The notes beneath the pieces are model-generated. The model was not told where the DNA came from and did not search any database. It worked only from the letters and a program-made list of their open reading frames with translations. Of a DNA stretch of 39,826 nt, positions 5,141 to 30,547 are shown piece after piece. The position numbers and the translations under genes were made by a program. This DNA comes from Caldilineae bacterium (GTDB lineage: Bacteria; Chloroflexota; Anaerolineae; DTLA01), in contig JBBIHX010000011.1 of assembly GCA_037446815.1 (NCBI GenBank), forward strand, positions 1 through 39,826, read 5' to 3'. Position 1 is the stretch's first letter. Each line of letters starts with the position of its first letter.

Positions 5141-5167
5141 GGCCGTCCCGCGATGGAGGAGCACGAG

Positions 5168-6133
5168 ATGGAACAGCAGGGGAACGTAGCAACCCGCCTG
5201 GCATTCCAATTCCCAGGGCAAGGCTCGCAGTACGTGGGCATGGGCAAGGCCCTGGCCGAGCGATTTGCCAGCGCCAGGCGCACATTTGAGGAGGCCGACG
5301 ACATCCTGGGCTTCCGCTTGAGCCAACTGTGCTTTGAAGGCCCCGCCGAGACCCTCACCGACACGGTCAACGCCCAGCCGGCCATCCTCACGGCGAGCAT
5401 CGCGGCCCTGCGCGCCCTGGCCGAGGCGACGGATGGCGCCATCGCTCCCGACTACCACATCGGCCACAGCCTGGGCGAGTACTCGGCGCTGGTTGCGGCG
5501 GGGGCGATGACCTTCGCCGACGGCCTGCGGCTGGTGCGGCTTCGCGGCGAACTCATGCGCGAGGCGGGACAGGTGCGGCCAGGCGGGATGCTGGCCGTCC
5601 TCGGCCTGGACGCCGCCGTCCTCCACGACATCTGCGCGAGGGTCTCCGAGGGCGAGCGCGTCGTCCAGGTGGCCAACGACAACGCGCCAGGGCAAGTGGT
5701 GCTCTCCGGCGACATTCAGGCGCTGGAGCACGCAGCCGAGTTGGCCAAGGAGAGTGGCGCGCGACGGGTCATCCGCCTGGCCGTATCCATCGCGGCCCAC
5801 TCGCGCCTCATGGCCCACGCCGCCGAGGGTCTCCGCCGCGCCGTCCATGCCGTGGCCTTGCGGCCGCCCGCCGTGCCCATCGTGGCCAACGTGGACGCGC
5901 GGCCCATCCACACGCCGGAAGACGTGCGGCGCGAACTGGTGGAGCAGTTGACCGCGCCCGTGCGCTGGACCGACTCCATCCGCGAGTTGGCGCGGCGCGG
6001 AGTAACTCGCTTTGTGGAGATCGGCCCCGGCTCGGTGTTGACGGGACTCGTGGGCCGCATCGCCCAGACGGCAACCGCGGTGTCCGTCGGCGATCCGGAG
6101 GCGGTGCTCGCCTTCGCCGCAGCGTGCCGATGA
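5168..6133 (+). CDS. fabD: Malonyl-CoA:ACP transacylase
   Basis: FPGQGSQ, GHSLGEY catalytic motif, ANDN, AAHS, PVRW, EIGPG; RBS GGAGG before ATG 5168. Confidence 0.95.
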   Translation: MEQQGNVATRLAFQFPGQGSQYVGMGKALAERFASARRTFEEADDILGFRLSQLCFEGPAETLTDTVNAQPAILTASIAALRALAEATDGAIAPDYHIGHSLGEYSALVAAGAMTFADGLRLVRLRGELMREAGQVRPGGMLAVLGLDAAVLHDICARVSEGERVVQVANDNAPGQVVLSGDIQALEHAAELAKESGARRVIRLAVSIAAHSRLMAHAAEGLRRAVHAVALRPPAVPIVANVDARPIHTPEDVRRELVEQLTAPVRWTDSIRELARRGVTRFVEIGPGSVLTGLVGRIAQTATAVSVGDPEAVLAFAAACR

Positions 6134-6298
6134 GCGCCTCACCGCCGAGGCGCAGCGGTGCAGCGCAGGCCGGGTTCGTGGTTGTCAACCGCAACGCCGC
6201 GAACTCACCGGAACGGGCGCACGAACCCTACCCGTTGGCGTCCATTCGCGGTTGCCAAAACGCAAGAACCGCACCGTGGCACGAACGGCGAACAGAGC

Positions 6299-6539: not shown

Positions 6540-7286
6540 ATGACACTGGAAGGCAAGGTCGCCCTGGTAACGGGAGCCTCGCGCGGCATCGGCCGAGCCA
6601 TCGCGCTGCGCCTTGCATCGGCGGGGGCGACCGTGGCCGTGAACTACCGCACGGCTGCGGCCGAGGCCGATAAGGTCGTGGCCGAAATCACGGGCGCCGG
6701 AGGCCGCGCCGCCGCGTTCCAGGCTGACGTCAGCCGCTTCGCCGAGGCTGAACGCCTCATCGGCGAGGTCATCGCTGCCTTCGGGCGCATTGACATCCTG
6801 GTGAACAACGCCGGCACCACGCGGGACACGCTCCTGGCGTCCATGAGCGAAGAGGACTGGGACGTGGTCGTGGACACCTGCCTCAAGGGCGCGTTCAACT
6901 GCTGCCGCGCCGTCATCCGCCCCATGATGCGCCAGCGGTACGGCCGCATTGTGAACATCACATCGGTCGCGGGCCTCGCCGGGCAGGCTGGGCAGGTCAA
7001 CTACGCCGCCGCCAAGGCCGGCCTCATCGGCCTCACCAAGTCGCTGGCGAAGGAGGTCGGTCCTCGCAACATCACCGTCAACGCCGTCGCGCCCGGCTAC
7101 GTCCCCACGGACCTCACCGCGTCGCTGCCTGCCGACATGGTGAAGAACTGGATTGACTTCACTCCGCTGCGGCGTGCGGCCACGCCGGAGGACATCGCCG
7201 CCGCCGTCGCGTTCCTCGTCTCGCCCGACGCCGACTTCATCACGGGCCAGGTCCTCAGCGTGGACGGCGGGCTAATCATGCAGTAG
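6540..7286 (+). CDS. fabG: 3-oxoacyl-ACP reductase
   Basis: [18 protein letters not shown] (YxxxK), PG; RBS AGGAGG before ATG 6540. Confidence 0.95.
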
Positions 7287-7326
7287 GGGGCAATTCCATT
7301 GCGCCCCAACACAGAAGGAGATGCAT

Positions 7327-8565
7327 ATGCCACGAACCCGAGTGGTCATCACCGGCATGGGAGCCGTAACGCCCGTGGGGAACGACGTCCCCACCACATG
7401 GCGCAACGTCGTAGATGGGAAATCGGGCGTCGGCCCCATCACCCTGTTTGACGCGTCGGACCTGGAGACGCGGATCGCCGCCGAGGTCAAGGGATTTGAC
7501 CCCACGGCCCTGTTCGGCCCCAAAGCGGCGCGCATTATGGACCGCTACACCCAATTCGCAGTCGCCGCCGCCCGCGAAGCCGTCGCCGACGCGGGCCTCA
7601 CCTTCGCGGGCAACAACGAGCGCGTCGCGGTCATCGTCGGCACGGGTATCGGCGGCATGGCCACGCTGGCCCAGCAACTCCACGTGCTGGACGAGCGCGG
7701 GCCTCGCAGGGTCAGCCCGTTCTTCATTCCAATGGTCCTTGCCGACACCGCCGCCGGCCAAATCGCCATAGAGTACGGCATTCGCGGGCCGAACCTCGCC
7801 GTCATTTCCGCCTGCGCCAGCGGCGCCAACTCCATCGGCGAGGCCGCCGAGATGATCCGCCACGGGCGGGTGGACAAGGCCATCTGCGGCGCGGCCGAGG
7901 CGGGCATCCTGCGCCTGGCCATCGCCGCGTTCAACGTGATGGGGGCCGTCTCCCGGCGCAACGACGAGCCCGAACGCGCCTGCCGCCCGTTTGACGCCAA
8001 GCGCGACGGCTTCGTCATGGGCGAGGGCGCGGGCATCCTGGTGCTGGAGAAACTGGAGGACGCCCAGGCGCGCGGCGCGCACATCTACGCCGAAATCCTC
8101 GGCTACGGCCTGTCGGCCGATGCCTATCACATCACCGCGCCGCTGGAAGATGGCGCGGGTGCGGCGTTGGCCATGGCAGGGGCGCTGCGGGACGCCGGCC
8201 TGTCCCCCGCCGATGTGGAGTACATCAACGCCCACGGGACGAGCACCCCGCTCAACGACCGCGCCGAGACCATCGCCATCAAATCCGTCTTCGGCGAGCA
8301 CGCCTACCGCCTGGCCGTGAGTTCCACCAAGTCGGTTACCGGCCATCTCCTGGGCGCGAGCGGCGCGATTGAAGCCATCATCACGGCCAAGGCCCTGGAG
8401 GAGGGCATCCTCCCGCCCACCATCAACTACGAGACGCCCGACCCCGAGTGCGATTTGGATTACACGCCGAACCGCGCCCGCCACAAAGCCATTCGCGTGG
8501 CGCTGTCCAACTCGTTCGGCTTCGGAGGCCACAACGCCTGCCTGGCGTTGGGAAGATATCCATGA
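7327..8565 (+). CDS. fabF: Beta-ketoacyl-ACP synthase II
   Basis: SACASG (catalytic Cys), NAHGTST, KSVTGHLLGA, SNSFGFGGHN. Confidence 0.96.
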   Translation: MPRTRVVITGMGAVTPVGNDVPTTWRNVVDGKSGVGPITLFDASDLETRIAAEVKGFDPTALFGPKAARIMDRYTQFAVAAAREAVADAGLTFAGNNERVAVIVGTGIGGMATLAQQLHVLDERGPRRVSPFFIPMVLADTAAGQIAIEYGIRGPNLAVISACASGANSIGEAAEMIRHGRVDKAICGAAEAGILRLAIAAFNVMGAVSRRNDEPERACRPFDAKRDGFVMGEGAGILVLEKLEDAQARGAHIYAEILGYGLSADAYHITAPLEDGAGAALAMAGALRDAGLSPADVEYINAHGTSTPLNDRAETIAIKSVFGEHAYRLAVSSTKSVTGHLLGASGAIEAIITAKALEEGILPPTINYETPDPECDLDYTPNRARHKAIRVALSNSFGFGGHNACLALGRYP

Positions 8566-9641
8566 GCAAGGGGATCAGGGCGCAGATCATCGGCTGGGGC
8601 GCGTATGTCCCCCGCCGCGTGGTAACCAACGCCGACATCGCCGAGTTGGTGGATACATCCGACGAGTGGATTGTGGAGCGCACGGGAATCCGCGAGCGAC
8701 GGCTTGCCGCGCCCGAGGAGACTACCGCCTCCATGGCCATCGCCGCCGCCGAGCGGGCGCTTGCCAGTGCCAGCGCCGACCCGCTGGCCATTGACCTCAT
8801 CATCGTCGCCACGGCCACGCCCGACTACATGTTCCCGGCCACCGCCTGCCTGGTGCAGCGCGGCATTGGCGCAAGCCGCGCCGCCGCATTTGACCTCGGC
8901 GCGGGCTGTTCGGGGTTCATCTACGCCCTGGCAATGGGCGCCCACGCCATTGAGGCGGGCGCGTGCCGCCAGGTGTTGGTCATCGGCGCGGAGACCCTGT
9001 CGCGCATCACCAACTGGAGCGACCGGGGCACGTGCGTTCTCTTCGGCGACGGGGCCGGCGCGGTGCTGCTGGGCCAGGCGCACAATCCGGGCGGCATCCT
9101 GGCGACGCACCTGGGGGCCGACGGCGCAGGCGCGGATTGGCTCATCCTTCCCGCGGGCGGCTCACGGAAGCCCGCCTCGGCGGAAACGGTCGCCCAGAAC
9201 CTGCACACGATTCAGATGGACGGGCAGAAGGTGTTTCGCTTCGCCACCAAGATCATCCCCGATGCCACGCGCAAGGTACTGGAACGGGTTGGCCTGTCCG
9301 TCGCGGATGTGGACGTGGTCATCGCGCACCAGGCCAACGCGCGCATCCTGCAAGCCGCCGCCGAACGTCTCGGCGTGCCAACGGAGAAAATGTACGCCAA
9401 CATTGACCGCTACGGCAACACGTCGGCAGCGTCCATCCCCATCGCCCTGTGCGAGGCTGCCGACGAGGGCCGACTGCAGCCCGGCCAGCGGGTGGTGCTG
9501 GTCGGGTTCGGCGCCGGCCTCACGTGGGGCGCGGCCCTCGTGGAATGGAGCGGCCCCATCCCCCCGAAGCGGGGCTTGCCCCGACTGTTGGCGGCGTTGC
9601 GCCGGTGGTGGGCCGCCTTCTTGCGCCGCTTCCGCCGCTGA
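8562..9641 (+). CDS. fabH: Beta-ketoacyl-ACP synthase III
   Basis: AGCSGF, HQAN, YGNTSAAS, GFGAGLTW; ATGA overlap with the fabF stop. Confidence 0.95.
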   Translation: MSKGIRAQIIGWGAYVPRRVVTNADIAELVDTSDEWIVERTGIRERRLAAPEETTASMAIAAAERALASASADPLAIDLIIVATATPDYMFPATACLVQRGIGASRAAAFDLGAGCSGFIYALAMGAHAIEAGACRQVLVIGAETLSRITNWSDRGTCVLFGDGAGAVLLGQAHNPGGILATHLGADGAGADWLILPAGGSRKPASAETVAQNLHTIQMDGQKVFRFATKIIPDATRKVLERVGLSVADVDVVIAHQANARILQAAAERLGVPTEKMYANIDRYGNTSAASIPIALCEAADEGRLQPGQRVVLVGFGAGLTWGAALVEWSGPIPPKRGLPRLLAALRRWWAAFLRRFRR

Positions 9642-9795
9642 AGGCGTGCGCAACGGCCACGGGGTCAACGCCTTCCCACATGCGCCCCACGTCGCGCCAT
9701 CCACCGTCCGGGGAGCGCTGTGCCGCGCACATTGGAACCGTCAACACCACCTCAAGCCTCAGCCCGAAAGGCCGGGGGCGGCTTGGGGCGCAGGG

Positions 9796-10413
9796 CTACG
9801 GGCCTTGCCGCCCCGCGAGAATCGCATCCACCGCCTCGCGGATGGCGAGGATCTCAACGCCGTACTTGTCGGCAATGTCTTTCAGCGGCGCGTGGACGTC
9901 TACGTCTGCGGGAAGCCCGGCCGCCGCAACAATCTCTTCCACGGAGATACCATAGATACGCGCCACATCCTCCAGCGTGTCCTTGCCCTTGATCTCAGCC
10001 GTGGGCTGCAGAGCAGGCGTCGCCTCGGGCACGTCAGAGGTTGGGGCCGGGACGGTGGCCGTCGGAGTAGCGCCCGCGAGTTCCGCGCGATAGGCCGTAA
10101 CGACATCTCGCACGGCGCTTACCTCAAACCCGCTCACGATAGCCTCTATGTCCTTGAGCGCAGTGTCCATGGGCAGGTCAGCGGGCAGGCCCAAGCGCCC
10201 CCGCAATTCCGCTTCGGGCACCTGATAGGTTGCGGCGACGTCGGCCAGCGTCATCCAGCCCTTGATGCCCTCGGGATCGGCCTGTCCCGACGCATCCAGC
10301 AGGACGGCCGTCTTGCCGCTCGTGGACCAATAGCCGGCAGCCTTGGCGATAAGAACGCTTCCCAGAAGACTCGCGACAAGCACGAGTGGCAGCACATAGC
10401 GATGGACTTTCAT
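9796..10413 (-). CDS. Membrane-anchored or exported protein with two repeated helical domains and a PT-rich linker
   Basis: Hydrophobic N-terminus; repeats IKGWMTLADVAATYQV...LKDI and IKGKDTLEDVARIYGI...LKDI; ATGA overlap with the upstream gene. Confidence 0.8.
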   Translation of the reverse strand: MKVHRYVLPLVLVASLLGSVLIAKAAGYWSTSGKTAVLLDASGQADPEGIKGWMTLADVAATYQVPEAELRGRLGLPADLPMDTALKDIEAIVSGFEVSAVRDVVTAYRAELAGATPTATVPAPTSDVPEATPALQPTAEIKGKDTLEDVARIYGISVEEIVAAAGLPADVDVHAPLKDIADKYGVEILAIREAVDAILAGRQGP

Positions 10414-11264
10414 GCGATCCCCTCCCGAGGCTGAGATGCTGGAGCAGGCTCCAAGATTGGCCCAACGTACAGCGTGTCTTTGACCGGGCACGCCTCAACG
10501 CACTGGAGGCAAGAGATGCAACCTGCCGTTACGCTCTTCTTCTGCGAGACCTGAATCCCGACCGGACAGGCCCTATCGCACTTCTTGCAGTGGATGCAGG
10601 TGGCCGCGTTGCGGCGAATGCGAAAGATGCTAACACGCTGCACGAGGCTGATGACGCCGCCCAACGGGCAAAGGTAGCGACACCAGAGCCGCGGGACGAA
10701 GAAAGCGCCCACCAGAATGCCCAGGCTGACCACGTAAGCGGGCCACGCTTCAGCCCAATTGAACTCAAACAGCCAACCCAGGCTGAAGATCGTCCGGTAC
10801 GGGTCGTAGTCGGCAAACCACAACTTGCCGGTCTGGATCGTAGCGTAGAGGATGCCCGCCAGAACCGCATACCGCCCAAAGGCCAGCGCCTTGTCCACTC
10901 GAGCCGGCACCTTCAATTCGGGCAGGCGCAACCGGCGGCGAATCCCCGTCAGCAAGTCCTGCAATCCGCCAAATGGACACACCCAGCCGCAGAACGCGCC
11001 CCCCACCAATACAGTCCCCACCAGCAGGCCCAGCGCAAGGACCACGTTGGACGCATGCGTCTTGGAGACAAACGTGCCCTGCGTTGCCAGTTTCCACAGA
11101 GTCTCCAGCCCCCCAAAGGGGCAGTAGGCATCTGTGGACGGCATCGCCCCGTCCGTAGCCGCCAGCGCGTGGCGCACACTTGCCACAAGGATGAAAACGC
11201 CGAATGCCAGTTGACTCAACCGCTGTAGAAGCGGAGTCCACGATTTGCCGACCCGCTTGCTCAT
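10410..11264 (-). CDS. Membrane 4Fe-4S-binding protein (NapH/RdxA/YccM-like)
   Basis: YCPFG, FCGWVCPFG, WCRYLCPLG, then CIHCKKCDRACP and CISCLQCVEACP; several transmembrane segments; RBS GGGAGG. Confidence 0.9.
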   Translation of the reverse strand: MSKRVGKSWTPLLQRLSQLAFGVFILVASVRHALAATDGAMPSTDAYCPFGGLETLWKLATQGTFVSKTHASNVVLALGLLVGTVLVGGAFCGWVCPFGGLQDLLTGIRRRLRLPELKVPARVDKALAFGRYAVLAGILYATIQTGKLWFADYDPYRTIFSLGWLFEFNWAEAWPAYVVSLGILVGAFFVPRLWCRYLCPLGGVISLVQRVSIFRIRRNAATCIHCKKCDRACPVGIQVSQKKSVTAGCISCLQCVEACPVKDTLYVGPILEPAPASQPREGIA

Positions 11265-11410
11265 GTGTACCTCCCTGCACAATGTTTGTCTTCAGCGACA
11301 TCATAGCGCAGCGTTATGAAGGGAGGTTGAGCAAGTTGTGTGGAAGTGATGAAGGTTCAGGCGCGACGGCGGCGCACCAGACAGGCGCGTGCGGCAATTG
11401 GCAACAGCGG

Positions 11411-12613
11411 CTACAATGGGGCGGCGCCCAGAACCTGCACCACGTCGGGCGTCGCCCACACCGCCGCGCCGGTCGTGTCCACCACCAGGTCGCACAACGC
11501 CATCTGAGGCCGGTAGCACTTCTCCGCCATCAGAAACTGCTCTCTGAAGAAACGGTTGCGGAAGTACGAGGGGTCGTACTTCTTGCGATAGTCAATATCC
11601 CGCTTCCACTTCCGTTTCAGGCGGATGGGGTCATCGGTCAAGTACACCACCTTGATGCCGATGAGGTGCGCAACCTCCTCAATGAGAAACGGGAAGTTGC
11701 CCTCAATGAAGATGACATCCGCCGGGTCAATCTCTATGGGGCGACAGCCCGGCTTCAGATTCCCGTCCAAATCGTGGCTGGACGTGGCGAACACAAAGTC
11801 GTAGCGAGGAATCACGATGCGTCTGCCGCGGGTGATGTCCTCCAGACTGCGGCACAGGAGTTGCAGGTGTATGGCCTGCTTGCCCAGCGTGTAAATCCCC
11901 TTGGCCTCGCGATACTCTCGGTCCGTGAGGAAGTTATCCATCTCAATCGCCGTCGTCTGGCGCCCCTCGTTGTGCAGGAAGTCCCGCAGCCGCGCCACGA
12001 TTTCCGTCTTGCCCGCCGCGGTAGGCCCGGCGATGGCCAGCACAATCGGCGTGCCTTTGGCCTCTATCAGCCGGCGGACGCTGTCCATGAAGAACGCATC
12101 CACCTCGGCGTTGGCCTCGCGAAACTCCTTGTAGCCCAGGTCTTGTCGCCGCTCAAAAGCCTCCTGGCGGCGGGGGAACTGGCGGATGGGCGCGCCGCCC
12201 AACCTCGCCACGATTTGCTCCGTGAAGTACGTGGTGCGATGAAGGAAGAAGAACCCGCGGATGTCAAAGTAGAAGTGCGCGCGCACCCACGAAACGGGAT
12301 ACTCGCCCGTTACCAGCCCGACAAACAGCATCTGCGTCAGGCGCACGATGTTCTCATCCAGGACAATGCGCTCATCCACGCGGGGCTTGATCTGGATGGA
12401 TTCGTAGAATTCGGCGGTGCTGACCCGAGCCTCAATCGCTTCCATCGGCTCCGGCGTTACCGACGCCCAGCCGCCTTCCGGGTAGAGATTGTCCAGCGCG
12501 TAGCGAAACTCGTACAGTTCCATGTCCTCCACGCCCGGGTTGACATGGGCCATGGCGCGATAGAGGTACTCGGAGAACACCGAGGAATCGTGCAGTACGG
12601 TCAGAGCCGCCAT
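11411..12613 (-). CDS. Phosphoribulokinase/uridine-kinase-family P-loop kinase with an unassigned N-terminal domain of about 190 aa
   Basis: LAIAGPTAAGKT (Walker A), IEMDNF, PRYDF, IFIEG, RLKRKWKRD; RBS AGGAGG before ATG 12613. Confidence 0.8.
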   Translation of the reverse strand: MAALTVLHDSSVFSEYLYRAMAHVNPGVEDMELYEFRYALDNLYPEGGWASVTPEPMEAIEARVSTAEFYESIQIKPRVDERIVLDENIVRLTQMLFVGLVTGEYPVSWVRAHFYFDIRGFFFLHRTTYFTEQIVARLGGAPIRQFPRRQEAFERRQDLGYKEFREANAEVDAFFMDSVRRLIEAKGTPIVLAIAGPTAAGKTEIVARLRDFLHNEGRQTTAIEMDNFLTDREYREAKGIYTLGKQAIHLQLLCRSLEDITRGRRIVIPRYDFVFATSSHDLDGNLKPGCRPIEIDPADVIFIEGNFPFLIEEVAHLIGIKVVYLTDDPIRLKRKWKRDIDYRKKYDPSYFRNRFFREQFLMAEKCYRPQMALCDLVVDTTGAAVWATPDVVQVLGAAPL

Positions 12614-12649
12614 CCCAATCCTCCTGTGGCGCAACCGGCACCGCGGAAT

Positions 12650-14236
12650 TCACGGCCGCGCCGGGTGCTTCCTCCCGACGCCGAAGACGAGCGCATCGTA
12701 GGCTTTCCGGGTCTTGGCGTAGTTGCCATCGCGATCCAGGGCAATCCCCCGCCCGACGCCGGTAACCACGGTGCCGATGCCGATTTCCCGAACCTGATCC
12801 TCCAGGCGTTCCAGCAGCGCAGGCGCGCTCCCCGGCTCCGTGCTCCGCCCGTCAAAGATGATGTGCACAAACACCCGTTCCAGCCCCGCGCCCTTCGCCA
12901 TGCGGAGCAATGCAAGTGGATACTCTATGGAGCCATGGGAACTCTTTTCCGTGAGCAGCCCCAGCAGGTGGAGACTCGCCCCGCGCTCCTTCACCCGCCG
13001 AATCGTGCGGCACAGGATTTCGTTGTGGTAGAACGAGCCATCCTTCATCGCCAGGTCAAGCCGCACGTCATCCTGCAGAATCACCCGCCCGGCTCCGATG
13101 TTGATATGGCCCGCCTCGGAGTTGCCGGGCTTGCCCGGTTTCAGCCCCACCGCCTCGCCCGCCGCCTCCAGGGTGCAGTGCGGGTACCGCCGCAGAAGCC
13201 CATCCCACACCGGCGTGCGCGCCAGGAAGATGGGGTTTGAGCCATCTTCCCTGCCGATTCCCCAACCGTCCAGAATCAGCAGAAGCGCGCGGCGGCGACC
13301 AGCCCAGCGGGCTTCGGGCAATAGGGCGCTGCCCGTCATGGCGTCGGGCACGGGCAAGCCGAGAGCACCCAAAACGGTAGGGGCCACGTCCGCCAGGCTC
13401 CCGTCCCGCGCGGTTGCACCGGACTCGCCGCGCGCGTCTATCGCGATGAACGGCACCGGGTTCGCCGTATGCGCCACGTGCGGCGTCCCGTCCGGGTGCG
13501 TCATCTCCTCCAGATTGCCGTGGTCTGCCGTAACGAAGACCACATACCCCGCGTCGCAAGCCGCGCTCACAACCTCGCCCAGGCAGCGATCCACCGCCTC
13601 CGCGCAGGCAATCTTGGCCTCGCGGCTCTGCGTATGGCCGATGACATCGCCATTGGCGAAGTTCGCCACGATGAGGTCATAGCCCTCGCCGATGCCCTGC
13701 GCTACCCGCGCCGCCACCTGCGGCAGGGCCAATTCCGGCACCTGGTCAAAGGGAACGCCCTTGGGCGATGGAATACGCGCATCCTCTTCGCCCGCGAAGG
13801 GCTGACCGTTCCCGCCGTTGAAGAAGAACGTTACATGCGCGAACTTCTCCGACTCTGCCACGCGCAATTGGCGCAGCCCTGCGCGGCTCACGACTTCGCC
13901 GAGGGTGTGGTCCACGTGCGTGGGCGCGAAGGCCACCGGCAGGTCCTTGAACTTCTCATGGTACAAGGTCAGGATGACGAACACCAGGTCCTTGAACGGC
14001 CGGCGCGGGAAAGCGTCCAGCGACGGATCCACGAATGCCTCGGTCAACTGAACCTCTCGCTCCCCCCGCCGACAGCAGAACACCACCGCGTCGCCATCCT
14101 GGATGCGGCCAATGGCCTCGCCTCGCTCGTCGGTCAACACGATAGGCTCAAGCGAGTAATCCGTCTGCCCCTCGCGATACAATTCTCGGACGGCCTGCGC
14201 CAAGGCCGCCGCGCCATGCACGGTAGCAGGTCCCAT
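12650..14236 (-). CDS. Circularly permuted 2,3-bisphosphoglycerate-independent phosphoglycerate mutase (GpmI/iPGM)-family protein
   Basis: Canonical C-terminal part (AESEKFAHVTFFFNGG, NFANGDVIGH, TADHGN, AHT, LADVAPT, MTG) precedes the canonical N-terminal part (LLILDGWG, GNSEAGHINIGAGR, FDGRS, DRD). Confidence 0.92.
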   Translation of the reverse strand: MGPATVHGAAALAQAVRELYREGQTDYSLEPIVLTDERGEAIGRIQDGDAVVFCCRRGEREVQLTEAFVDPSLDAFPRRPFKDLVFVILTLYHEKFKDLPVAFAPTHVDHTLGEVVSRAGLRQLRVAESEKFAHVTFFFNGGNGQPFAGEEDARIPSPKGVPFDQVPELALPQVAARVAQGIGEGYDLIVANFANGDVIGHTQSREAKIACAEAVDRCLGEVVSAACDAGYVVFVTADHGNLEEMTHPDGTPHVAHTANPVPFIAIDARGESGATARDGSLADVAPTVLGALGLPVPDAMTGSALLPEARWAGRRRALLLILDGWGIGREDGSNPIFLARTPVWDGLLRRYPHCTLEAAGEAVGLKPGKPGNSEAGHINIGAGRVILQDDVRLDLAMKDGSFYHNEILCRTIRRVKERGASLHLLGLLTEKSSHGSIEYPLALLRMAKGAGLERVFVHIIFDGRSTEPGSAPALLERLEDQVREIGIGTVVTGVGRGIALDRDGNYAKTRKAYDALVFGVGRKHPARP

Positions 14237-14266
14237 CACACCCCTCGCCCCTGCCCTTCCGCACCG

Positions 14267-15697
14267 TTACGCCGCCTGGGAGGGCAGGCGCGGCGGGAAG
14301 ATGTCCAGCAAATCGCTGAGCCGACGGATGATGTAATCGGGCCGGTTCTCCTCGGCGATGGGTTCCTGCTCCTCTGCCGGGTCAATGAGCAGGATGACCA
14401 TCCCAAACCCAGCCTTGCGCGCGCCTTCCACATCGCGGGCCGGATTATCGCCCACGTAGGCGGCCCGCGATGGAGCGACTTCCGCCCGGCGCGCCCCTTC
14501 CAGGTAAATCTCCGGGTCGGGCTTGCGCCTGCCGAAAATAGATGAGAGGACCACGGTCGGGAAGTAGGGCTTCAGCCCATCCTCCTCCAGCCACTGCGGA
14601 ATCTCGCGCTCGGTAATCGTGTTGCTGATGATTCCCAGCCGATAACCGCGGCGCGTCAATTCCAGCACCACATCCTTTGCGTCGGGCTGGGCGAAGCGGC
14701 GGCCCATCGTCTGGCGGTACAGGAACGTCAGTTCTCCGGCCAGCGGGGCGATCTTCTCCGGGGGATAGTCGGGCAGGAGCCAGCGCGTCCACAACTCCCG
14801 CTCCGAGGCCTCCCGCAAGGTCTCAAATGCCCACTTGCGGTACACCTTGTACCGTTTGTCCAGTTCGGCGCAAAACGCCTCGGGAGGTTCCTGCGCGCCG
14901 ACCAGCGCCGCGATCTTCCGTCTGGCCTCGGCCTGATACGGCTCGTCCTCCACGAGCACCCGCAGCGTCGCCCCAACGTCAATGAAGATGACCTCAATGT
15001 CGCGGCCCATGTCCCTTGCCTCCCTATGGGGTATTGACGTGAAAATCGGCAGGTCCAGCAGTTCCAGAGGAGACGCGGCATAGTAGTCGGCCCTGGCGTC
15101 TTCGGCGTAGTTCACGGCCACCGTAACCATCCCCGCGTTGTGCGCCCCATCCAGTTCGTCGGCGTCGTGCCCCACGAATGCCGACTCGGCCGGCGTCAAC
15201 CCCGCCATCTCCAGCGCACGCAGGTAGATGGCAGGGTCGGGCTTGTGCGCGCCCACGTCGGTAGAGCACGCCAGCACATCCACAAACGGAGACAGCCCCA
15301 GGCTATCCAGCCAGCGGCGCTTCCGCTCAATCGGGTAAATCGTATCGGTAACGATGCCTACCACGAACCCCCGCTGCTTCAGGGCCGCCAGCGCCTGCCT
15401 CGCTCCGGGAATCTCCTCCACACGGTCCGAGTGGGCGTTGATTTCCGACACGAGCGCGCGGCGGACCTGCGGGTCGGCGACGCCGTACAGCGCCAGCACC
15501 GCGTCCCAGTACTCATCCGGCGTAATGACGCCGTTGTTGGCGTCTGCCCGCAGCGCCCTGATTCGCGCCCGCTGCGGCTCGCCCAACTCCCCTGAAATCC
15601 CCTCGCGCCGCAGCAACTTCAGGACGAAGCGGCTCGTCGCCTGTGGCCGCCGGTACAGGACGCCAGCCGCATCAAAGAAAACCCCCCTAATCCCCAT
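14267..15697 (-). CDS. Tandem double HAD-superfamily (IA-like) hydrolase
   Basis: Domain 1: FFDAAGVL..KPDP..FVGH. Domain 2: FIDVGATL..ISN..KPDP..YVGDN...DV. Internal RBS plus ATG at 15010. Confidence 0.85.
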   Translation of the reverse strand: MGIRGVFFDAAGVLYRRPQATSRFVLKLLRREGISGELGEPQRARIRALRADANNGVITPDEYWDAVLALYGVADPQVRRALVSEINAHSDRVEEIPGARQALAALKQRGFVVGIVTDTIYPIERKRRWLDSLGLSPFVDVLACSTDVGAHKPDPAIYLRALEMAGLTPAESAFVGHDADELDGAHNAGMVTVAVNYAEDARADYYAASPLELLDLPIFTSIPHREARDMGRDIEVIFIDVGATLRVLVEDEPYQAEARRKIAALVGAQEPPEAFCAELDKRYKVYRKWAFETLREASERELWTRWLLPDYPPEKIAPLAGELTFLYRQTMGRRFAQPDAKDVVLELTRRGYRLGIISNTITEREIPQWLEEDGLKPYFPTVVLSSIFGRRKPDPEIYLEGARRAEVAPSRAAYVGDNPARDVEGARKAGFGMVILLIDPAEEQEPIAEENRPDYIIRRLSDLLDIFPPRLPSQAA

Positions 15698-16460
15698 GGT
15701 TGATCTCCGAAGATGAGATGAGCAAAGGAATGATTTCTGACAGGCTCCCGATGACCGCATCCGGCGCCTCGCCACCGGCGGCGCGGTCCACCTTCTCCGT
15801 GAGGAACGACCGAATCTGAATCGCCAGCCCGTACCCCGCGCGGCGCGCGCCGATGACATCGCGGGAGACCGTATCGCCCACGTAGGCGCACTCGGCGGGC
15901 GACAGATTCAGCCGCCGCGCCGCCTCATGGAAGATGCGCGGGTTCGGCTTGCGCCAGCCGAATTCGGCGCTGGTCAGCACAGGGCCAAACAGGTGCGCAA
16001 TCCCATAGGCTGCCAGTTGGCGCGGCACCAGCGTGCGGCTGATGATGTTGGAGATGACGCCCAGGCGAAGACCGTGATCGCGGAGCGTCTGCAACACATC
16101 ATGGGCGTCGGGCCGCAGCTTGCGAATCTGATAATGCGTCTCGTAGAAAAACGTCAGGTCCTCGGCGGCGGCGGCAAGCCGATCCTTGGGCAGTCCGTTG
16201 TTCGGGAAGACGTACTCCGCCCAGACGCGCGCCGGCGGCAGTTCCCGTTCCGTCGCCTCGCGCCACGCCTGGTATGCCTCCATCCCCCCCAGCACGGTTG
16301 CCTCCAGCGCTGCCGCGTCCAGGCCCGGGTCCAGGCCGATCTCGCCCAGCACGCACTGAAGTTGGACCGTGGCCGCCCGGCGACTGGCGTCGTCAAAGTA
16401 CAGGTCTTCCAGCGTGCCGCCCATGTCAAACACGACGGCGCGAATGTTCGGGTATGGCAT
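15687..16460 (-). CDS. HAD-superfamily (IA-like) hydrolase
   Basis: VFDMGGTL, ISN, KPNP, YVGDT..RD; RBS AGGGAG before ATG 16460. Confidence 0.88.
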   Translation of the reverse strand: MPYPNIRAVVFDMGGTLEDLYFDDASRRAATVQLQCVLGEIGLDPGLDAAALEATVLGGMEAYQAWREATERELPPARVWAEYVFPNNGLPKDRLAAAAEDLTFFYETHYQIRKLRPDAHDVLQTLRDHGLRLGVISNIISRTLVPRQLAAYGIAHLFGPVLTSAEFGWRKPNPRIFHEAARRLNLSPAECAYVGDTVSRDVIGARRAGYGLAIQIRSFLTEKVDRAAGGEAPDAVIGSLSEIIPLLISSSEINHGD

Positions 16461-16541
16461 GTCGGTCTCCCTACAGCCGGCGCTTGGTAGCACGGAAGCA
16501 ACAGCGTGCTGCGTTCGGGACGCGAACTCACCCGCCAGGAA

Positions 16542-16577
16542 GACGCCGGAGGCCGCGGGAGCGTGGCCCCCGGCGTC
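16542..16577 (-). terminator. Strong stem-loop after the solute-binding protein gene (terminator or mRNA stabiliser)
   Basis: GACGCCGGGGGCCACG-CTCC-CGCGGCCTCCGGCGTC on the minus strand: 16-bp stem with one G-U and one mismatch; only a weak U tail. Confidence 0.55.
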
Positions 16578-16605
16578 GTTCCGTTCTGCCCACCGGGCTT
16601 GCGTA

Positions 16606-17868
16606 CTACTGCAACAGGTTCATCGCCCAGAAGTCGCGCATCTTGGCAATGTTGGCATACACGTACATGTCGTCTTGCGACCAGACGCTCAGTTCCTCGC
16701 GGGGGATAGCGCCTTCGGGCGCGGGCACATCCGTGCGCGCCGCGTAGTCGCCGATGACGTTCCACGGCTCAAACCCTTCGTTCAGGATGAAGCGGATAAA
16801 GAGTTTGGCTGCATTCGGATGAGGCGCGCGGTTGATGATCGCCAGGTACGCCTGCGTCTGCACGCCCATGACCGGCTTCACGCCCTTGCAAGCGTCAAAG
16901 ACCACCTCGCCCTTGAGCGTGCGGCGGTACTTGGAGTACGACGTGAAGCCCACGCCCGCCTCCTTCATGCCGGGGGTCGCGAAGGCTTCCACAACCTCGT
17001 CGCCGCCCGGCTCCGGCACGGGCGAGTTCTGGGCGAACCGCTTGACCCACAGCCAGCCCGCGTCGGGCGTGTCGGGATCCAGCACCGGGTCTTTTCCGTA
17101 GTATTCCCGGTACGCCGCGGCCAGTTCCTCCGCGTGGGCTGCGATGGTCGTGAGAATGCCCATGGTGGAAGCGTCGGTCAGCGGATCCTCAATGAAGACC
17201 TTGCCCTTCCACTCCGGCTCGGTCAACTGCCACCAGTTGGTGATGGGGCAGCCGTTGGGGTTGAGTTCGGTGTTATAGCCCAGGACACGCACACCATAGC
17301 GCGAGACCACAAACGGGTTGCGGGCCTCGGGCGGGATCACGTCCAGCAGGTCATCGGGCACAAAGGGCACCAGGTAGCCCTTGGGCAGGAACTCGCCGAA
17401 CACGTCGGGGCCGCCGCCGGAGAAGTACACGTCGCCGATGTAGGCGCCGGCCTTCTGCTCCTCGCGCACCTTGATGACCGCGTCATCGCCGCCCAGGTCG
17501 TACCCTTCCACGGTGATCTCGGGGTACTTCTCCATGAACATGGCGGCGGCGTTCTCAATGCGCGACGAGTTGGCGTAGACGATGACCTTGCCTTCCTTCT
17601 TCGCCGCGGCCTCAATCGCCGCCCAGTCTTGCTTGGCGGGGGCGAACTTGCCCAGTTCCGCCGCCTTCAGCCACTGCTCATCCGGCGTCAGCGTCGGTTC
17701 GGGCGTTGGGGCGGGCGGCTGCGTCGGAGCCACAGTCGGCTGCGCGGGCGCAGTCGTGGGCGCAGTCGTGGGCGCGGGCTTGGGCGTTGGCGTCGCGGCC
17801 GGCGCGCCGCACCCCGCGATGAGCACTACCAACAGACATACCGAAAGAACCTTCACCAGCGTCTTCAT
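16606..17868 (-). CDS. ABC transporter solute-binding lipoprotein (AfuA/FbpA/PotD-like class)
   Basis: Lipobox LIAG-C; PT-rich linker with 12-bp tandem repeats (PTTA); AAAKKEGKVIVY, GYNTEL, W..L..PEWKGK, APHPNAAKLFI. Confidence 0.9.
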   Translation of the reverse strand: MKTLVKVLSVCLLVVLIAGCGAPAATPTPKPAPTTAPTTAPAQPTVAPTQPPAPTPEPTLTPDEQWLKAAELGKFAPAKQDWAAIEAAAKKEGKVIVYANSSRIENAAAMFMEKYPEITVEGYDLGGDDAVIKVREEQKAGAYIGDVYFSGGGPDVFGEFLPKGYLVPFVPDDLLDVIPPEARNPFVVSRYGVRVLGYNTELNPNGCPITNWWQLTEPEWKGKVFIEDPLTDASTMGILTTIAAHAEELAAAYREYYGKDPVLDPDTPDAGWLWVKRFAQNSPVPEPGGDEVVEAFATPGMKEAGVGFTSYSKYRRTLKGEVVFDACKGVKPVMGVQTQAYLAIINRAPHPNAAKLFIRFILNEGFEPWNVIGDYAARTDVPAPEGAIPREELSVWSQDDMYVYANIAKMRDFWAMNLLQ

Positions 17869-17996
17869 TTCTCCCTCCTAGCGTGTCTTTCCGGAAAGGA
17901 AACCGTTAGGTCAAACTTGTTGCTCCTCCCCGTTCTCGCCTCCTTTCTACTGACTGACGGCGCGTCATCGGCCAGGCGCGCCCATGCGGATCACGC

Positions 17997-19088
17997 TCAT
18001 GCCTTCCGGATCGCCACAAGATTGCCTGTGGCGGCGTCGTACAGATTGATGGTGTTGGGGTCAAACTTTAGCCACACGGGATCGTCCATTTTGATGGGGC
18101 TGATGCCGGGCACGCGGACGGTAATGTCGCGTTCGCCGAGCCGCGCAACGATGGTGGAATCCGCTCCCGACGGCAGCACCGAGTAGACCGTGAACTTCAC
18201 TGTGTCCGGCGTCGGCTCCGTGTACACCCCGATATCCTCGGGGCGTATGGCCAGCACGACCTTGCCCTCCACGCCCTGCGTCACCATCGGCACCTTGAAT
18301 TCGCCCAGGTTCACGCAACCCTGGCCGTCCACGACCCCCTCCAGCAGGTTCACCTTCGGGTTGCCGATGAAGTCGGCCACGAACAGGTTGGCCGGGCAGC
18401 GGTACACACGGTCGGGCGGATCCACCTGCTGCAACACCCCGTCCTTCATCACCGCAATCAGCGACGACATGGTGAGCGCCTCCACCTGGTCGTGGGTAAC
18501 GTAGATGGTCGTCGCGCCGGCCACGTGGTGCAGCCGCTTCAGTTCGGCCCGCATGTCCATGCGCAGGCGCGCGTCCAGGTTGGAGAGCGGCTCGTCCATG
18601 AGGAAGACCTTGGGCCGATACGCCAGCATCCGCGCCAACGCAATCCGCTGCTGCTGGCCGCCGCTCATCTCCCGTGGGTACCGATTCTCGTACCCCAGCA
18701 TCTTCACCTCGGCCAGCGACTCTTTCACCCGCTTGTCAATCTCGGCTTTCGGCAGTTTTCGGATCTCCAGCGCGAAACTCATGTTCTTGTACACGGTCAT
18801 ATGCGGCCAGAGCGCGTAATTCTGGAACACCAGCCCCACGTCCCGCTGGCCCGCGGGCAGCGAAATCCCGCGCGCCCGCGAGTAGACCAGTTTGTCGCCA
18901 ATGTAGATTTCGCCCTCATCGGGGTCTTCCAGCCCCGCCACGCAGCGCAGGAGCGTCGTCTTCCCGCAGCCCGATGGGCCTAGCAGCGTGAGGAACGCCC
19001 CCGCTTCTATGGTCAGGCTCACGTTGTTGACGGCCACCACGTCGCCAAACCGCTTTGTGAGGTTCTTAATCGTAATGGTTGTGCCCAT
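17997..19088 (-). CDS. ABC transporter ATP-binding protein with C-terminal TOBE domain
   Basis: GPSGCGKT, VFQNYALWPH, MSGGQQQR, LMDEPLSNLD, YVTHDQ. Confidence 0.95.
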   Translation of the reverse strand: MGTTITIKNLTKRFGDVVAVNNVSLTIEAGAFLTLLGPSGCGKTTLLRCVAGLEDPDEGEIYIGDKLVYSRARGISLPAGQRDVGLVFQNYALWPHMTVYKNMSFALEIRKLPKAEIDKRVKESLAEVKMLGYENRYPREMSGGQQQRIALARMLAYRPKVFLMDEPLSNLDARLRMDMRAELKRLHHVAGATTIYVTHDQVEALTMSSLIAVMKDGVLQQVDPPDRVYRCPANLFVADFIGNPKVNLLEGVVDGQGCVNLGEFKVPMVTQGVEGKVVLAIRPEDIGVYTEPTPDTVKFTVYSVLPSGADSTIVARLGERDITVRVPGISPIKMDDPVWLKFDPNTINLYDAATGNLVAIRKA

Positions 19089-19097
19089 GCTCCCCCC

Positions 19098-20933
19098 TTA
19101 CATTCCTAGACCTTTTTTCAGGCTACCGCCTCGGAATCGCCCGATCACGAAGTTCCCGACGAGAACCAGCGCGATCAGGATGAGGATCACCGCGTTCGCC
19201 ATCTGGGTATCGCCGTTCTCGGTGTAGCGCATGGTCTGGCTGGCCAGCACCTGCGTTGAAGGCGTAACCAGCAAGATGATGAGGGACAATTCGCGCATCG
19301 TCGTGATGAACGTCAGCAGAAAGCCGGACACGAACCCGGCGCTCGTCAGCGGGAAGATGATGCGCTTGAACCGCTGCCACAGACCGGCCCCCGCGATCTG
19401 CCCCGCTTCCTCCAGTTCTCTCCCCACCTGGAGCATCGCCGATACGCCGCTCCGCGCCGAGTACGGGATGTGCTTCGCCACAGACACAACCACGAGCAGC
19501 GCGAATGTCCCGTAGAGCGCCGGAATCGGCCCCACGCGCTTGGAGAACATGGAGATGTACACCGCGCCGAAGGCGATGCCGGGTATCACGTAGGGGATGA
19601 ACGAAAGTTGCTCCACCAGTTTGGACAGGCGCGTGCCCCTCCCCTTCACGATGGCATAGCCCAGGATAACCCCGAGCAGCGCCGTGAAGAAGGCCGTGAG
19701 CAGCGACAGCCGAATGGAGTTCCAGGCGCTGGCGTAAATCTTCGGGTTACGCAGCACGCCAGGGGCACCGTTCGCAATGTTGATATCACTCTTGCCAATC
19801 CAGTAGTGCAATGTGAGGTTGCTGAGGCTGTAATCGCCCGCCCGCAGCATGAACGTGTCATAGGCAAGCAGGCCCAGCGGGAGTGCGATCACCAGAACCT
19901 GGAAGATGATCACGAAGACCGCGATGACATTGCGCCACCGGCGCAACTGAGCCACATGTGCCACAAACCCGCGGCCCCCGATGGTCTCGTAACTCTTGCG
20001 CGTGCCGATGACGCGCTGGTTGATGTAAATCGTTACGATGGTGAATAGAATGAGCACGATGGCCAGCACGAACCCATCCGCGAACTCCCCGATGGCCACG
20101 TTGGAGCGAATCATCGTGGCGATGACGTAGTACCGCACGGGCACGCCCAGCACGTTGGGCCCGCCAAACGTCCCCATGACTTTGGAGAACGTCATGATGA
20201 ACCCCGATAGCAGGGCCGGCAGCACCAATGGGAACGTGATGCGCCGAAGGATTCGGCTTCGGCCCGCCCCCATCAGTTCCGCTGCCTCCTCCAGGTTGGA
20301 GTCAATGGACATCAGCGCGGCCGAAACGAACAGGAAGAAGAAGGTGTAGTAGTGCAGCGCGCTGCTCACGATGATGGGAAACGGACCATAGGCCAGCCAC
20401 GTGGGAATCGGACGCCCAATCAGGTACTCCAGGAGGCCGGGGGTGCCACCGGCCGCCCTCGTGTTGAACAGCACCTTCCACGCCATGGCGATGGTCCACG
20501 AAGGCATGATGTACGGTATCGTGGCGAGGTTGTTGATGAGTTTGCGCCCGGGCATGTCTGTTCGGATGACCAACCAGGCCAGCACGGAGCCGATGAACAT
20601 CGCCAGGAGCGTGGCCCCGGTAGCCACCACCAGCGAATGCTGAAGCGGCGCGTACAGGAAAACCTTGCTCACCCGGCTCGCCAGCATCCGCACCCAGTGA
20701 TACGCCGTGAGTTGGCCGGGGACTGCATCGGGCACCGCATGGACATCGCGCTCCTGGTACGTTACCGTCGTCTCCACCATGCGGTACAGCGGCACCAGGA
20801 TGAGGTACACCATCATCACCAGCAGGATGAGCGCCAGGAGCACCCGCGCGCTGGTCAGCCAGCGGATGAACCGTCGGTACGCTGCCAGAATGCGCACCGA
20901 CAAGGGCAGTTCAATCGCCTCAGGAACGCTCAT
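19098..20933 (-). CDS. Fused double-domain ABC permease (AfuB/FbpB-like)
   Basis: Two EAA loops (LEEAAELMGA, LEEAGQIAGA); RTDMPGR; about 12 or more hydrophobic segments. Confidence 0.92.
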   Translation of the reverse strand: MSVPEAIELPLSVRILAAYRRFIRWLTSARVLLALILLVMMVYLILVPLYRMVETTVTYQERDVHAVPDAVPGQLTAYHWVRMLASRVSKVFLYAPLQHSLVVATGATLLAMFIGSVLAWLVIRTDMPGRKLINNLATIPYIMPSWTIAMAWKVLFNTRAAGGTPGLLEYLIGRPIPTWLAYGPFPIIVSSALHYYTFFFLFVSAALMSIDSNLEEAAELMGAGRSRILRRITFPLVLPALLSGFIMTFSKVMGTFGGPNVLGVPVRYYVIATMIRSNVAIGEFADGFVLAIVLILFTIVTIYINQRVIGTRKSYETIGGRGFVAHVAQLRRWRNVIAVFVIIFQVLVIALPLGLLAYDTFMLRAGDYSLSNLTLHYWIGKSDINIANGAPGVLRNPKIYASAWNSIRLSLLTAFFTALLGVILGYAIVKGRGTRLSKLVEQLSFIPYVIPGIAFGAVYISMFSKRVGPIPALYGTFALLVVVSVAKHIPYSARSGVSAMLQVGRELEEAGQIAGAGLWQRFKRIIFPLTSAGFVSGFLLTFITTMRELSLIILLVTPSTQVLASQTMRYTENGDTQMANAVILILIALVLVGNFVIGRFRGGSLKKGLGM

Positions 20934-21002: not shown

Positions 21003-21911
21003 TCACGGAACGCCGCGCTCTTCTCGTTCGCTCCAGGTGAGTTTGACGGGCATATCCATGTTGTACGTCTCGCGCATCCGCTCCAGCCGATTGAGGGCCG
21101 CGAGACTCTCCTCGGGCCGAGCCATGGCCACGGACAGAATCAGGGCATTCAGGATGGACATCGGCACGGTGAGCGAGTGGAATGTGGACACCGGCCCCCT
21201 GCGCGCGGCCAGCACCACATCCGCCTTGTGGCGAAGCGCGGGGCCAAGTGTGTCGGTGAGGAGCACGGAGCCGCACCCCACGGCCCGCGCATGCTCCAGC
21301 ACCACCACCAGTTCATGCCGCACGTACTGAAACCCCGCCGCCAGCACTGCATCGCCCTGCTGGAGCAGTTGCAACTTCTCCAGCAGGTGGCGCCCCGACT
21401 CGGTCATCGCCAACGCCCAGATGCCCAATCGCCTGAACCGCAGTTCGGCCAAATCCGCCAAGACGGCCGACGGCCCGCTGGCGAAGATGAAGAGCCGCTG
21501 GCCGCCCAGCAGGATTTGCACGGCGCGGTCAAAATCGGCCCCGTCTATGCTGTGAGCGGCCTCTTGGAGGTACTGCACCTCCATCTCCAGAACCTTGGTG
21601 AGGGTAGACCCCTCGCCATCCGACAACTCGTGGAGTTTGCGCTGAAGGCGACTGGCGGGTGTGGTGCGCTGGCGGAAGAGTTCCTGAAGATAGCGGCGGA
21701 GTTCCGGAAACCCGCTGAACCCCACCGCCCGGGCAAACCGACCCAGCGTCGCCTCGCTGACATCCAACCGCTCCACCAGGTCAGCAGCCGTGAGGAATGC
21801 CGCCTCGTCGTAGTTCGCCAGAAGATAGTCGGCGATGCGGCGCTGACTCTTGGTCAGGCTCGGGAAGTGGGCTTCCAGCCGTTGCCGAAAATCGTTGAGT
21901 CCTTGCTCCAT
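21003..21911 (-). CDS. RpiR/MurR-family transcriptional regulator (HTH plus SIS)
   Basis: LTKSQRRIADY, VSEATLGRFARAVGFSGFPEL, C-terminal SIS domain. Confidence 0.92.
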   Translation of the reverse strand: MEQGLNDFRQRLEAHFPSLTKSQRRIADYLLANYDEAAFLTAADLVERLDVSEATLGRFARAVGFSGFPELRRYLQELFRQRTTPASRLQRKLHELSDGEGSTLTKVLEMEVQYLQEAAHSIDGADFDRAVQILLGGQRLFIFASGPSAVLADLAELRFRRLGIWALAMTESGRHLLEKLQLLQQGDAVLAAGFQYVRHELVVVLEHARAVGCGSVLLTDTLGPALRHKADVVLAARRGPVSTFHSLTVPMSILNALILSVAMARPEESLAALNRLERMRETYNMDMPVKLTWSEREERGVP

Positions 21912-21964
21912 CCGCCACCTCGCGTCGGCGGGACCTGCACACGTTATCAGGCCCACCGTGAAAG

Positions 21965-30546: not shown

Positions 30547-30547
30547 G

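Follow-up and report, generated by a model that had tools for sequence, protein, structure and literature searches.

A naturally circularly permuted GpmI-type phosphoglycerate mutase family and its conserved gene cluster in Anaerolineae

The cofactor-independent phosphoglycerate mutase (iPGM; GpmI) is a textbook hinge-bending enzyme of two domains and a drug target in parasites and bacteria. Here we describe a gene for an enzyme of this type in which the two halves of the chain stand in swapped order. It lies in a 39,826-nucleotide stretch of DNA (the window, which always refers to this whole stretch) from a Caldilineae bacterium of the Anaerolineae, phylum Chloroflexota (assembly GCA_037446815.1, contig JBBIHX010000011.1), and its product, the window protein, belongs to a large family of permuted proteins. 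In canonical iPGM, as described in parts of two published accounts, the phosphatase domain is assembled from the N- and C-terminal segments of the chain, the transferase domain is the middle insert, connected by two hinge peptides, and the substrate is bound on the transferase surface (PMC5382265, PMC8113725). The same parts of these accounts assign residues 27-95 plus 339-538 of the C. elegans enzyme to the phosphatase domain and residues 96-338 to the transferase domain (PMC5382265, PMC8113725).

The closest described enzymes are the canonical GpmI of B. stearothermophilus (PDB 1EJJ and 1O98), S. aureus (4MY4) and C. elegans (5KGM). With these the window protein shares both domains, the Ser nucleophile, the two metal sites and the cage of Arg, Lys and His residues around the substrate. 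It differs from them in having a contiguous phosphatase domain and a split transferase domain, in carrying Ser for Asp154 and replacements at 12 further positions, in failing the equivalog model NF003897, and in its non-glycolytic genomic context. The ApgM-type iPGM (PF10143, NF003160) belongs to the same Metalloenzyme superfamily and has the same nominal EC activity, but it has a different cap domain and a length of about 400 amino acids (aa), and the window protein matches it weakly (TIGR00306, 30 bits). A natural circular permutation relates the eukaryotic and bacterial glutathione synthetases, according to the part of PMC2876114 that treats them. That pair resembles the permuted and canonical iPGMs in being homologous, with the same fold and chemistry and a rotated sequence order; unlike glutathione synthetase, the permuted iPGM is cut and joined in different domains of a hinge-bending two-domain enzyme. 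For the neighbouring transport genes the closest comparison is with AfuABC-type sugar-phosphate importers, by virtue of a binding protein of the Fe3+/FbpA class and a fused double permease; the similarity is low, and the comparison is a lead only. A search of the full-text literature, judged from titles and abstracts and with subscription journals outside its coverage, found no description of a permuted iPGM. The first-pass annotation of this DNA, which proposed the permutation, likewise knew of no described permuted GpmI. In the databases the permuted proteins are named plain iPGM.

The translation start of the mutase gene (Table 1) can be placed at either of two adjacent codons. An ATG at 14236, one codon past the GTG, gives an alternative product of 528 aa and is the start that the first-pass annotation had used; that annotation had also claimed a ribosome-binding site, and a purine-rich GAGGGG is present directly 5' of the start. 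The product was compared by phmmer with all PDB sequences, with B. stearothermophilus iPGM (PDB chain 1ejj_A, 511 aa) as the main reference. Residues 316-523 align without a gap to 1ejj_A 4-211 (176.8 bits, i-E 6.8e-51), and residues 15-307 align to 1ejj_A 218-509 (232.6 bits, i-E 8.6e-68), E-values that exclude a chance match. Two such stretches were found in each of the 11 distinct PDB iPGM sequences matched, and identity to canonical iPGM is 38-46% per part. The chain begins at native residue ~213, runs to the native C-terminus, passes through an 8-residue linker and continues from native residue 4 to ~217; the new ends jointly span native residues ~212-217. The profile models behave in the same way: TIGR01307 aligns residues 10-307 with its positions 210-504 of 504, and both Pfam models, Metalloenzyme (207 bits) and iPGM_N (161 bits), are likewise split over two stretches. 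Alignment and domain parsing find one copy of each part, none duplicated or lost, and the TIGR01307 cut-off is passed (489.3 bits vs 330.65). The canonical linear order of phosphatase N-part, transferase and phosphatase C-part is absent, the order being swapped, which on the alignment we interpret as a topological variant, not as evidence against homology to GpmI.

These results agree with what had been read from the letters alone. The swapped segment order is borne out by two phmmer stretches that are not collinear, and the strings by which it had been recognized are found at 301-307 (MTGSALL), 308-317 (PEARWAGRRR, window ~13289-13318), 318-327 (ALLLILDGWG) and 513-522 (AYDALVFGVG). The description of a single open reading frame (ORF) of normal length with nothing duplicated or missing also holds, only 8 residues lying between the aligned native ends. 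The linker is conserved as a WGGRRR type among close relatives; distant permuted proteins have linkers of differing sequence, about 8-20 aa long.

The permuted order is widespread. A word-indexed search of 5.8 billion proteins, in which 8000 candidates were scored, listed 120 matches (70-100% identity, 508-556 aa). All 120 cover 95-100% of the window protein in one collinear alignment, and all were found to be permuted by domain parsing. An exhaustive search of 1.84 billion 50%-identity representatives listed 150 proteins, comprising 126 canonical iPGMs, 20 permuted ones and 4 fragments with one part only; 16 of the 20 permuted representatives are full-length, one of these inside a 5027-aa prediction. 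A profile built from 11 deep-branching permuted members again listed 120 matches, every one of which covers 94-99% of the permuted query collinearly. Overall, 486 proteins were retrieved (237 permuted, 245 canonical and 4 partial), so the search for homologues of the same order that the first-pass annotation had suggested yields 237 of them. All 18 permuted proteins inspected begin and end at matching structural positions and have the same junction layout.

Genomes tell the same story. One genome per GTDB species was scanned with six peptide patterns specific to the window protein, which gave 398 stretches, 324 of them encoding relatives; all counts of loci given here refer to the best 80 of these 324. 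The junction is crossed in all 80 loci. Seventy-six span residues <=13 to >=522, and the other 4 are cut by contig ends. Two are located on complete chromosomes (CP070811.1, locus L028; OY969578.1, locus L033). Almost all 80 are metagenome-assembled genomes (MAGs) of Anaerolineae/Chloroflexota, including Anaerolinea, Bellilinea, Leptolinea, Longilinea and Ca. Aquidulcis. Five loci (L047, L048, L049, L056 and L032) are labelled Bacillota, Oscillospiraceae, Syntrophothermus or Bacteroidota, and their permuted genes are 61-68% identical; horizontal transfer or mis-binning may account for these labels. In six loci (L023, L052, L053, L055, L057 and L072) the best tblastn piece starts >200 bases inside or ends >100 short of the scan span, which may reflect assembly frameshifts.

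An artefact of assembly or gene calling, such as a collapsed tandem duplicate or a chimeric contig, would be the simplest dismissal of such a gene, and we consider it extremely improbable. Nothing in the window speaks for it; within the family, artefacts may be present in two cases, the singleton P0143 (2 contigs, longest 6.6 kb) and the 5027-aa P0226. It is contradicted by the order shared among all 80 loci, two complete chromosomes included, by the common start and stop of the 18 proteins inspected, and by the normal length and single copies of the parts. Because the same order and junction recur in 120 of 120 listed proteins and in 80 of 80 independently assembled loci, misassembly is excluded for the family, and this alternative, raised with the original proposal, is ruled out without recourse to reads. 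The permutation is real, to near certainty. What goes beyond the earlier proposal is that the protein is not a one-off and belongs to a large family, that the main clade of this family has an altered substrate pocket, and that the gene sits in a conserved non-glycolytic cluster. In P0226 the permuted iPGM unit occupies residues about 3859-4371; this protein may be a true giant fusion or the product of faulty gene calling.

An AlphaFold2 model of the window protein, built with a 37-sequence alignment, has a mean predicted local distance difference test score (pLDDT) of 93.9 and a predicted template modelling score of 0.87. The pLDDT is <50 at residues 1-4 only, and the blocks around the linker score 93 and 86. 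Foldseek returned 22 matches in the PDB at E <= 0.001, all of them iPGMs, with 1o98 the best (E 3e-21). The alignments extend over 229-324 columns with template modelling (TM) scores of 0.38-0.47 (297 columns and 0.45-0.47 for the best match), and this partial coverage and the low TM are what would be expected of a sequential aligner that meets a permuted chain. The structural check that had been suggested along with the permutation thus gives a confident model whose significant matches are all iPGMs. No solved structure with the permuted order was present among the PDB sequence (phmmer) or Foldseek matches.

Mapped onto the window protein, the second part of the transferase domain occupies residues ~1-95, the phosphatase domain ~96-395 and the first part of the transferase domain 396-529. 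Pfam places the best Metalloenzyme stretch at 105-295 and iPGM_N at 396-524 (profile positions 3-131 of 217). Since the native ends both lie in the phosphatase domain and are joined here, this domain becomes contiguous. Judged from the alignment and the secondary structure, the permutation appears to exchange which domain is the insert, while two inter-domain crossings, or hinges, remain. The new termini would lie in a loop at the surface of the transferase domain, with the cut falling between native residues ~211 and 218. Two earlier structural expectations hold in this arrangement: joining the native termini is plausible, both being in the phosphatase domain in the canonical layout as given in the parts of the accounts cited above, and the new ends fall in the substrate-binding domain, with the cut at iPGM_N profile position about 131 of 217. 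Nei-Gojobori dN/dS (the ratio of nonsynonymous to synonymous substitution rates) is 0.17, 0.16 and 0.12 against the three closest orthologues (L046, L003 and L004, respectively), with dS of 0.69-1.12, and the gene is under purifying selection.

The active site was examined in a two-part alignment of 147 rows, in which the parts were aligned separately and joined in canonical order. The rows are all representatives with both parts well covered, the window protein and 8 arbitrarily chosen close relatives. Native residues are numbered as in B. stearothermophilus iPGM. Residues 15-307 of the window protein contain Arg58 (R261), Arg61 (R264), Lys132 (K336), Asp198 (D403), His202 (H407), Asp239 (D444), His240 (H445) and His257 (H462). 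Residues 316-523 contain Asp324 (D12), the nucleophile Ser374 (S62), His378 (H66), His435 (H123), Arg465 (R153), Ser466 (native D154), Arg497 (R185) and Arg503 (R191). The Ser nucleophile and both metal sites (D12, S62, D444, H445; D403, H407, H462) are therefore complete, and 7 of 8 phosphoglycerate-binding residues of the transferase domain (H123, R153, D154, R185, R191, R261, R264, K336) are kept, D154 being Ser. In a FastTree phylogeny of the 147 rows, a clade of 21 permuted rows that includes the window protein (the main clade) stands apart from all else with support 99. All 21 keep D12, S62, H66, H123, R185, R191, R261, R264, K336, D403, H407, D444, H445 and H462. The C. elegans equivalents of the nucleophile and metal-site residues are given in a part of PMC5382265. 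With this conservation, a decaying or catalytically dead pseudoenzyme is very improbable: the replacement of Asp154 is the sole point in its favour, set against a dN/dS of 0.12-0.17, a confident fold prediction, and 49 columns that are invariant in 37 sequences down to 40% identity, those of the Ser nucleophile and of every metal ligand among them.

The mutase gene is one of eight minus-strand genes that lie head to tail in the window, from the RpiR regulator through the kinase (11411-21956), and include an ATP-binding cassette (ABC) importer and HAD phosphatases (Table 1). Homologues of the neighbours were counted by tblastn of the window proteins against the 80 loci (E <= 1e-10, coverage >= 50%); the counts are lower bounds because many loci are short contigs.

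Table 1. The permuted mutase gene, its parts and the genes of its cluster in the window, with the number of loci (of 80) in which at least one homologue of the neighbour was found.
Feature	Position	Strand	Loci (of 80)	Remarks
RpiR/MurR-family regulator	21003..21956	minus	52	HTH_6 + SIS phosphosugar-binding domain
Fused double ABC permease	19098..20933	minus	51	best NCBIfam match PhnU2-like, below cut-off
ABC ATPase	17997..19088	minus	56	TOBE domain; best NCBIfam match UgpC-like, below cut-off
ABC substrate-binding protein	16606..17868	minus	39	Fe3+/FbpA/AfuA-like class (SBP_bac_11)
HAD-IA phosphatase	15687..16493	minus	77	
Fusion of two HAD-IA phosphatase domains	14267..15859	minus	31	TIGR02253-like; upstream of mutase
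Permuted GpmI-type phosphoglycerate mutase	12650..14239	minus		529 aa from GTG 14239, stop included
Mutase residues 15-307 (native 218-509)	13319..14197	minus		transferase second part, hinge 2, phosphatase C-terminal part
Mutase linker, residues 308-315	13295..13318	minus		native C-terminus to native N-terminus
Mutase residues 316-523 (native 4-211)	12671..13294	minus		phosphatase N-terminal part, hinge 1, transferase first part
Kinase	11411..12634	minus	66	407 aa; 16 bases past mutase stop

The two halves of the cluster are found in either order, for example in L039 compared with the window. Besides the genes in Table 1, an ApgM-type (archaeal-type) mutase gene adjoins the permuted gene in 57 of the 80 loci (for example L046:11563-12798 and L039:12790-13995). 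The two such proteins tested, those of L046 and L039, match PF10143 and score 571 and 562 bits with NF003160, for which the cut-off is 468. It is unusual for one cluster to hold iPGMs of two different types. No ApgM-like gene was detected in the window's own 39.8 kb. The ORF of the HAD-HAD fusion overlaps the upstream HAD gene by 173 bases, and its first HAD match starts at residue 57, so that translation probably begins at an internal Met. HAD genes 5' of the mutase are separate in two other loci inspected, L039 and L048, and L048 has three HADs ahead of the permuted mutase. The binding protein matches the Fe3+/FbpA class at E 2.5e-9 and, weakly, 4R72 (E 0.0018), a structure of AfuA bound to hexose phosphates; the binding protein has no NCBIfam match, and a search for its ligand returned weak Fe3+/FbpA-class matches only. 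An Rfam scan of the whole window gave 0 matches, and a promoter and terminator scan of 10000-23500 found fewer sites than in shuffles.

The kinase is a two-domain protein. Its C-terminal P-loop domain (residues 195-390) belongs to the Udk/PRK family, and its AlphaFold2 model (pLDDT 92.8) has a C-terminal half like those of uridine-cytidine kinases and phosphoribulokinases, with a TM score to target of about 0.70 for human UCK2. No match was obtained in Pfam, PDB sequences or Foldseek for the N-terminal domain of ~195 aa. It is strongly conserved, with F20, E42, F43, D93, W116, F121, F123, D124, R126 and others invariant. Searches by sequence, by Atlas and by fold narrowed the substrate no further than the Udk/PRK family. 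The gene occurs once in 36 loci, twice in tandem in 30 and not at all in 14 of the 80. A homologue at L063:3360-4565 has an in-frame stop codon and may be a pseudogene or reflect a sequencing error.

Taken together, the window protein is probably a real, old and naturally permuted member of the GpmI family that works like iPGM on 3-/2-phosphoglycerate or a very close analogue and serves the surrounding cluster. That it is a competent phosphotransfer enzyme of the iPGM type is equally likely. A phospho-acid bound on the transferase domain would pass its phosphate to Ser374, which lies at the binuclear metal site. The acid freed of phosphate would change its orientation, and the phosphate would then return to the neighbouring hydroxyl. 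The substrate would be 3-/2-phosphoglycerate or a very close analogue. Whether it is phosphoglycerate or has changed is a roughly even question, and we lean to phosphoglycerate or a close analogue. The cluster, for its part, may take up and convert an organophosphate or sugar acid, in which case the permuted enzyme would not be just a glycolysis gene. The lasting linkage, the second mutase gene alongside and the changes in the pocket described below together suggest that the enzyme serves a dedicated module for the conversion of an organophosphate or sugar acid.

Several observations weigh against this interpretation, some bearing on the substrate and others on the history of the family. The window protein fails the stricter NCBIfam equivalog NF003897 by a wide margin (396.5 bits, cut-off 862). 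Residue 154 is D in 120 of 122 canonical rows, whereas the 21 main-clade rows have S (17 rows), G (3) or D (1); of the 237 permuted proteins altogether, 222 have S, 5 have D and 3 have G, and 7 are undetermined. Asp154 is reported by Jedrzejas et al. (2000) to contact the substrate; a literature search on its role found nothing. The pocket was also compared over positions >=85% conserved in canonical iPGMs, using 14 diverse main-clade rows and the 122 canonical ones. In the main clade, 12 further such positions carry replacements (A24P, V64A, V122S, H128Y/E, M189L, E231Y, N259C, D263E, R266V/I, T334S, M404V and G409x), along with the clade-invariant changes G121S, S124G and A265E. Several of these flank His123 and Arg261/264, and the GGVHS motif of canonical iPGM becomes KSSHG. 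The replacements imply that the substrate of the permuted enzyme may not be phosphoglycerate. In addition, the ApgM-type mutase next door in 57 of the 80 loci argues against simple redundancy.

These same observations are the basis for a different proposal, namely that the main clade is a neofunctionalised paralogue, acting as a phosphomutase, phosphotransferase or phosphatase on another small organophosphate that is imported by the adjacent ABC system and processed by the neighbouring kinases, HAD phosphatases and ApgM. We regard this as a tentative possibility, somewhat short of an even chance. In its favour are the change of Asp154 to Ser or Gly with the 12 further clade-specific replacements, the tight conservation of the gene cluster, and the adjacent ApgM-type enzyme, whose tested copies pass its equivalog cut-off. 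The four permuted proteins outside the main clade retain most of the canonical pocket: all four have D at residue 154, all four have the canonical residue at 9 of the 13 positions, three of four have it at 3 positions, and at residue 231 all four carry E, as canonical iPGMs do. Locus L049 (6373-19711, in a MAG labelled Bacillota) carries the permuted gene with a PHO4 phosphate transporter, PhoU_div, three HADs, a LacI regulator, an ABC importer, a PHP phosphoesterase and Exo_endo_phos, and without kinase or ApgM; its flavour is one of phosphate scavenging, and the PHO4, PhoU_div, PHP and Exo_endo_phos genes also speak for a changed substrate. A Chloroflexi genome reconstruction gives a cofactor-dependent phosphoglycerate mutase as the glycolytic enzyme (PMC3971608). 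On the other side, every Arg, Lys and His of the cage around the phosphate and carboxylate of phosphoglycerate is retained, TIGR01307 is passed, no tool pointed to another substrate, and the window itself is without ApgM. If the proposal is correct, the permuted protein would be a new enzyme and not a matter of topology alone, its pocket having been remodelled after the permutation in the Anaerolineae-centred main clade for a different phospho-metabolite, a suggestion to which we give the same tentative standing. An undescribed uptake-and-conversion pathway might then consist of an FbpA/AfuA-class ABC importer, an RpiR sensor and two or three HAD phosphatases, and perhaps also, at the same tentative strength, of one or two two-domain Udk/PRK-like kinases and the ApgM-type mutase.

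At the opposite extreme, the permuted gene could encode an ordinary housekeeping glycolytic iPGM, merely permuted, with an unrelated operon accidentally linked to it. The TIGR01307 match, the complete catalytic machinery and the iPGM annotation in databases are all compatible with this, but it is unlikely. The linkage with HAD, kinase, RpiR and ABC genes holds from 84% to about 60% identity in spite of gene-order rearrangements, and neither the pocket substitutions nor the adjacent ApgM fits a housekeeping role. Between these two proposals, an iPGM-like enzyme that serves the cluster is the reading we prefer.

The phylogeny supplies the remaining points on the adverse side. The FastTree phylogeny scatters P0139+P0157, P0143 and P0226 among canonical rows, with a minimum of 4 changes. 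A quick IQ-TREE analysis of 64 rows, of which 20 are permuted and 44 canonical after removal of 5 near-duplicate permuted rows and 78 canonical ones, also puts P0139, P0157, P0143 and P0226 among canonical rows. The 119 other listed matches of P0143 are all canonical (42-57% identity, named from Geobacteraceae and Clostridia), and no duplication intermediates, of N-C-N or doubled architecture, were found among the 150 listed representatives. More than one origin, or artefacts among P0139, P0157, P0143 and P0226, are therefore possible. A tree that holds all 20 permuted rows together has a log-likelihood 29.0 above the free quick tree (p-AU, from the approximately unbiased test, 0.72), and a single origin, neither rejected nor proven, is the simpler reading. 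P0143, P0139 and P0157 keep the canonical pocket, Asp154 included, and may be early branches, independent permutations or artefacts. Three 'BAA' cases among the listed representatives are split matches of one copy.

Tandem duplication, fusion and loss of the outer ends is the textbook route to circular permutation. For the permuted iPGM, the likely origin is a single tandem duplication whose copies were fused in frame and whose two outer ends were then lost.

The rest of the window is of a different character. A run of minus-strand redox and central-metabolism genes at 24918-39708 encodes an MvhD/FlpD-containing polyferredoxin, a UbiA prenyltransferase, a radical SAM protein, a CCG-domain HdrD/B-like protein, a 1071-aa NAD(P)/FAD oxidoreductase with Fe-S domains, three 2-oxoacid:ferredoxin oxidoreductase subunits, and succinyl-CoA synthetase alpha and beta. 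Four long ORFs have no Pfam match, 3494-6142 (minus), 7276-8532 (minus), 8671-10434 (plus) and 21973-23136 (minus), and some of them may be spurious in DNA of 65% GC. Homologues of the last occur in 37 of the 80 loci, and since these are mostly on the opposite strand and overlap RpiR, it is suggested to be a shadow ORF.

The permuted iPGMs form a large natural family which shows that the chain can be opened within the transferase domain and sealed at the phosphatase domain. Its natural sequences, numbering in the hundreds at 38% to 100% identity, make it a ready-made test case for protein evolution and folding. For annotation, the family is a case in which matches to profile models are split in two and the cut-off of one curated equivalog model is missed. 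Anaerolineae are abundant in digesters, sediments and aquifers; judging by the conserved cluster and the altered pocket, these bacteria may have an unstudied route for an organophosphate or sugar acid. Metabolic reconstructions that count the permuted gene as the glycolytic phosphoglycerate mutase may be wrong.

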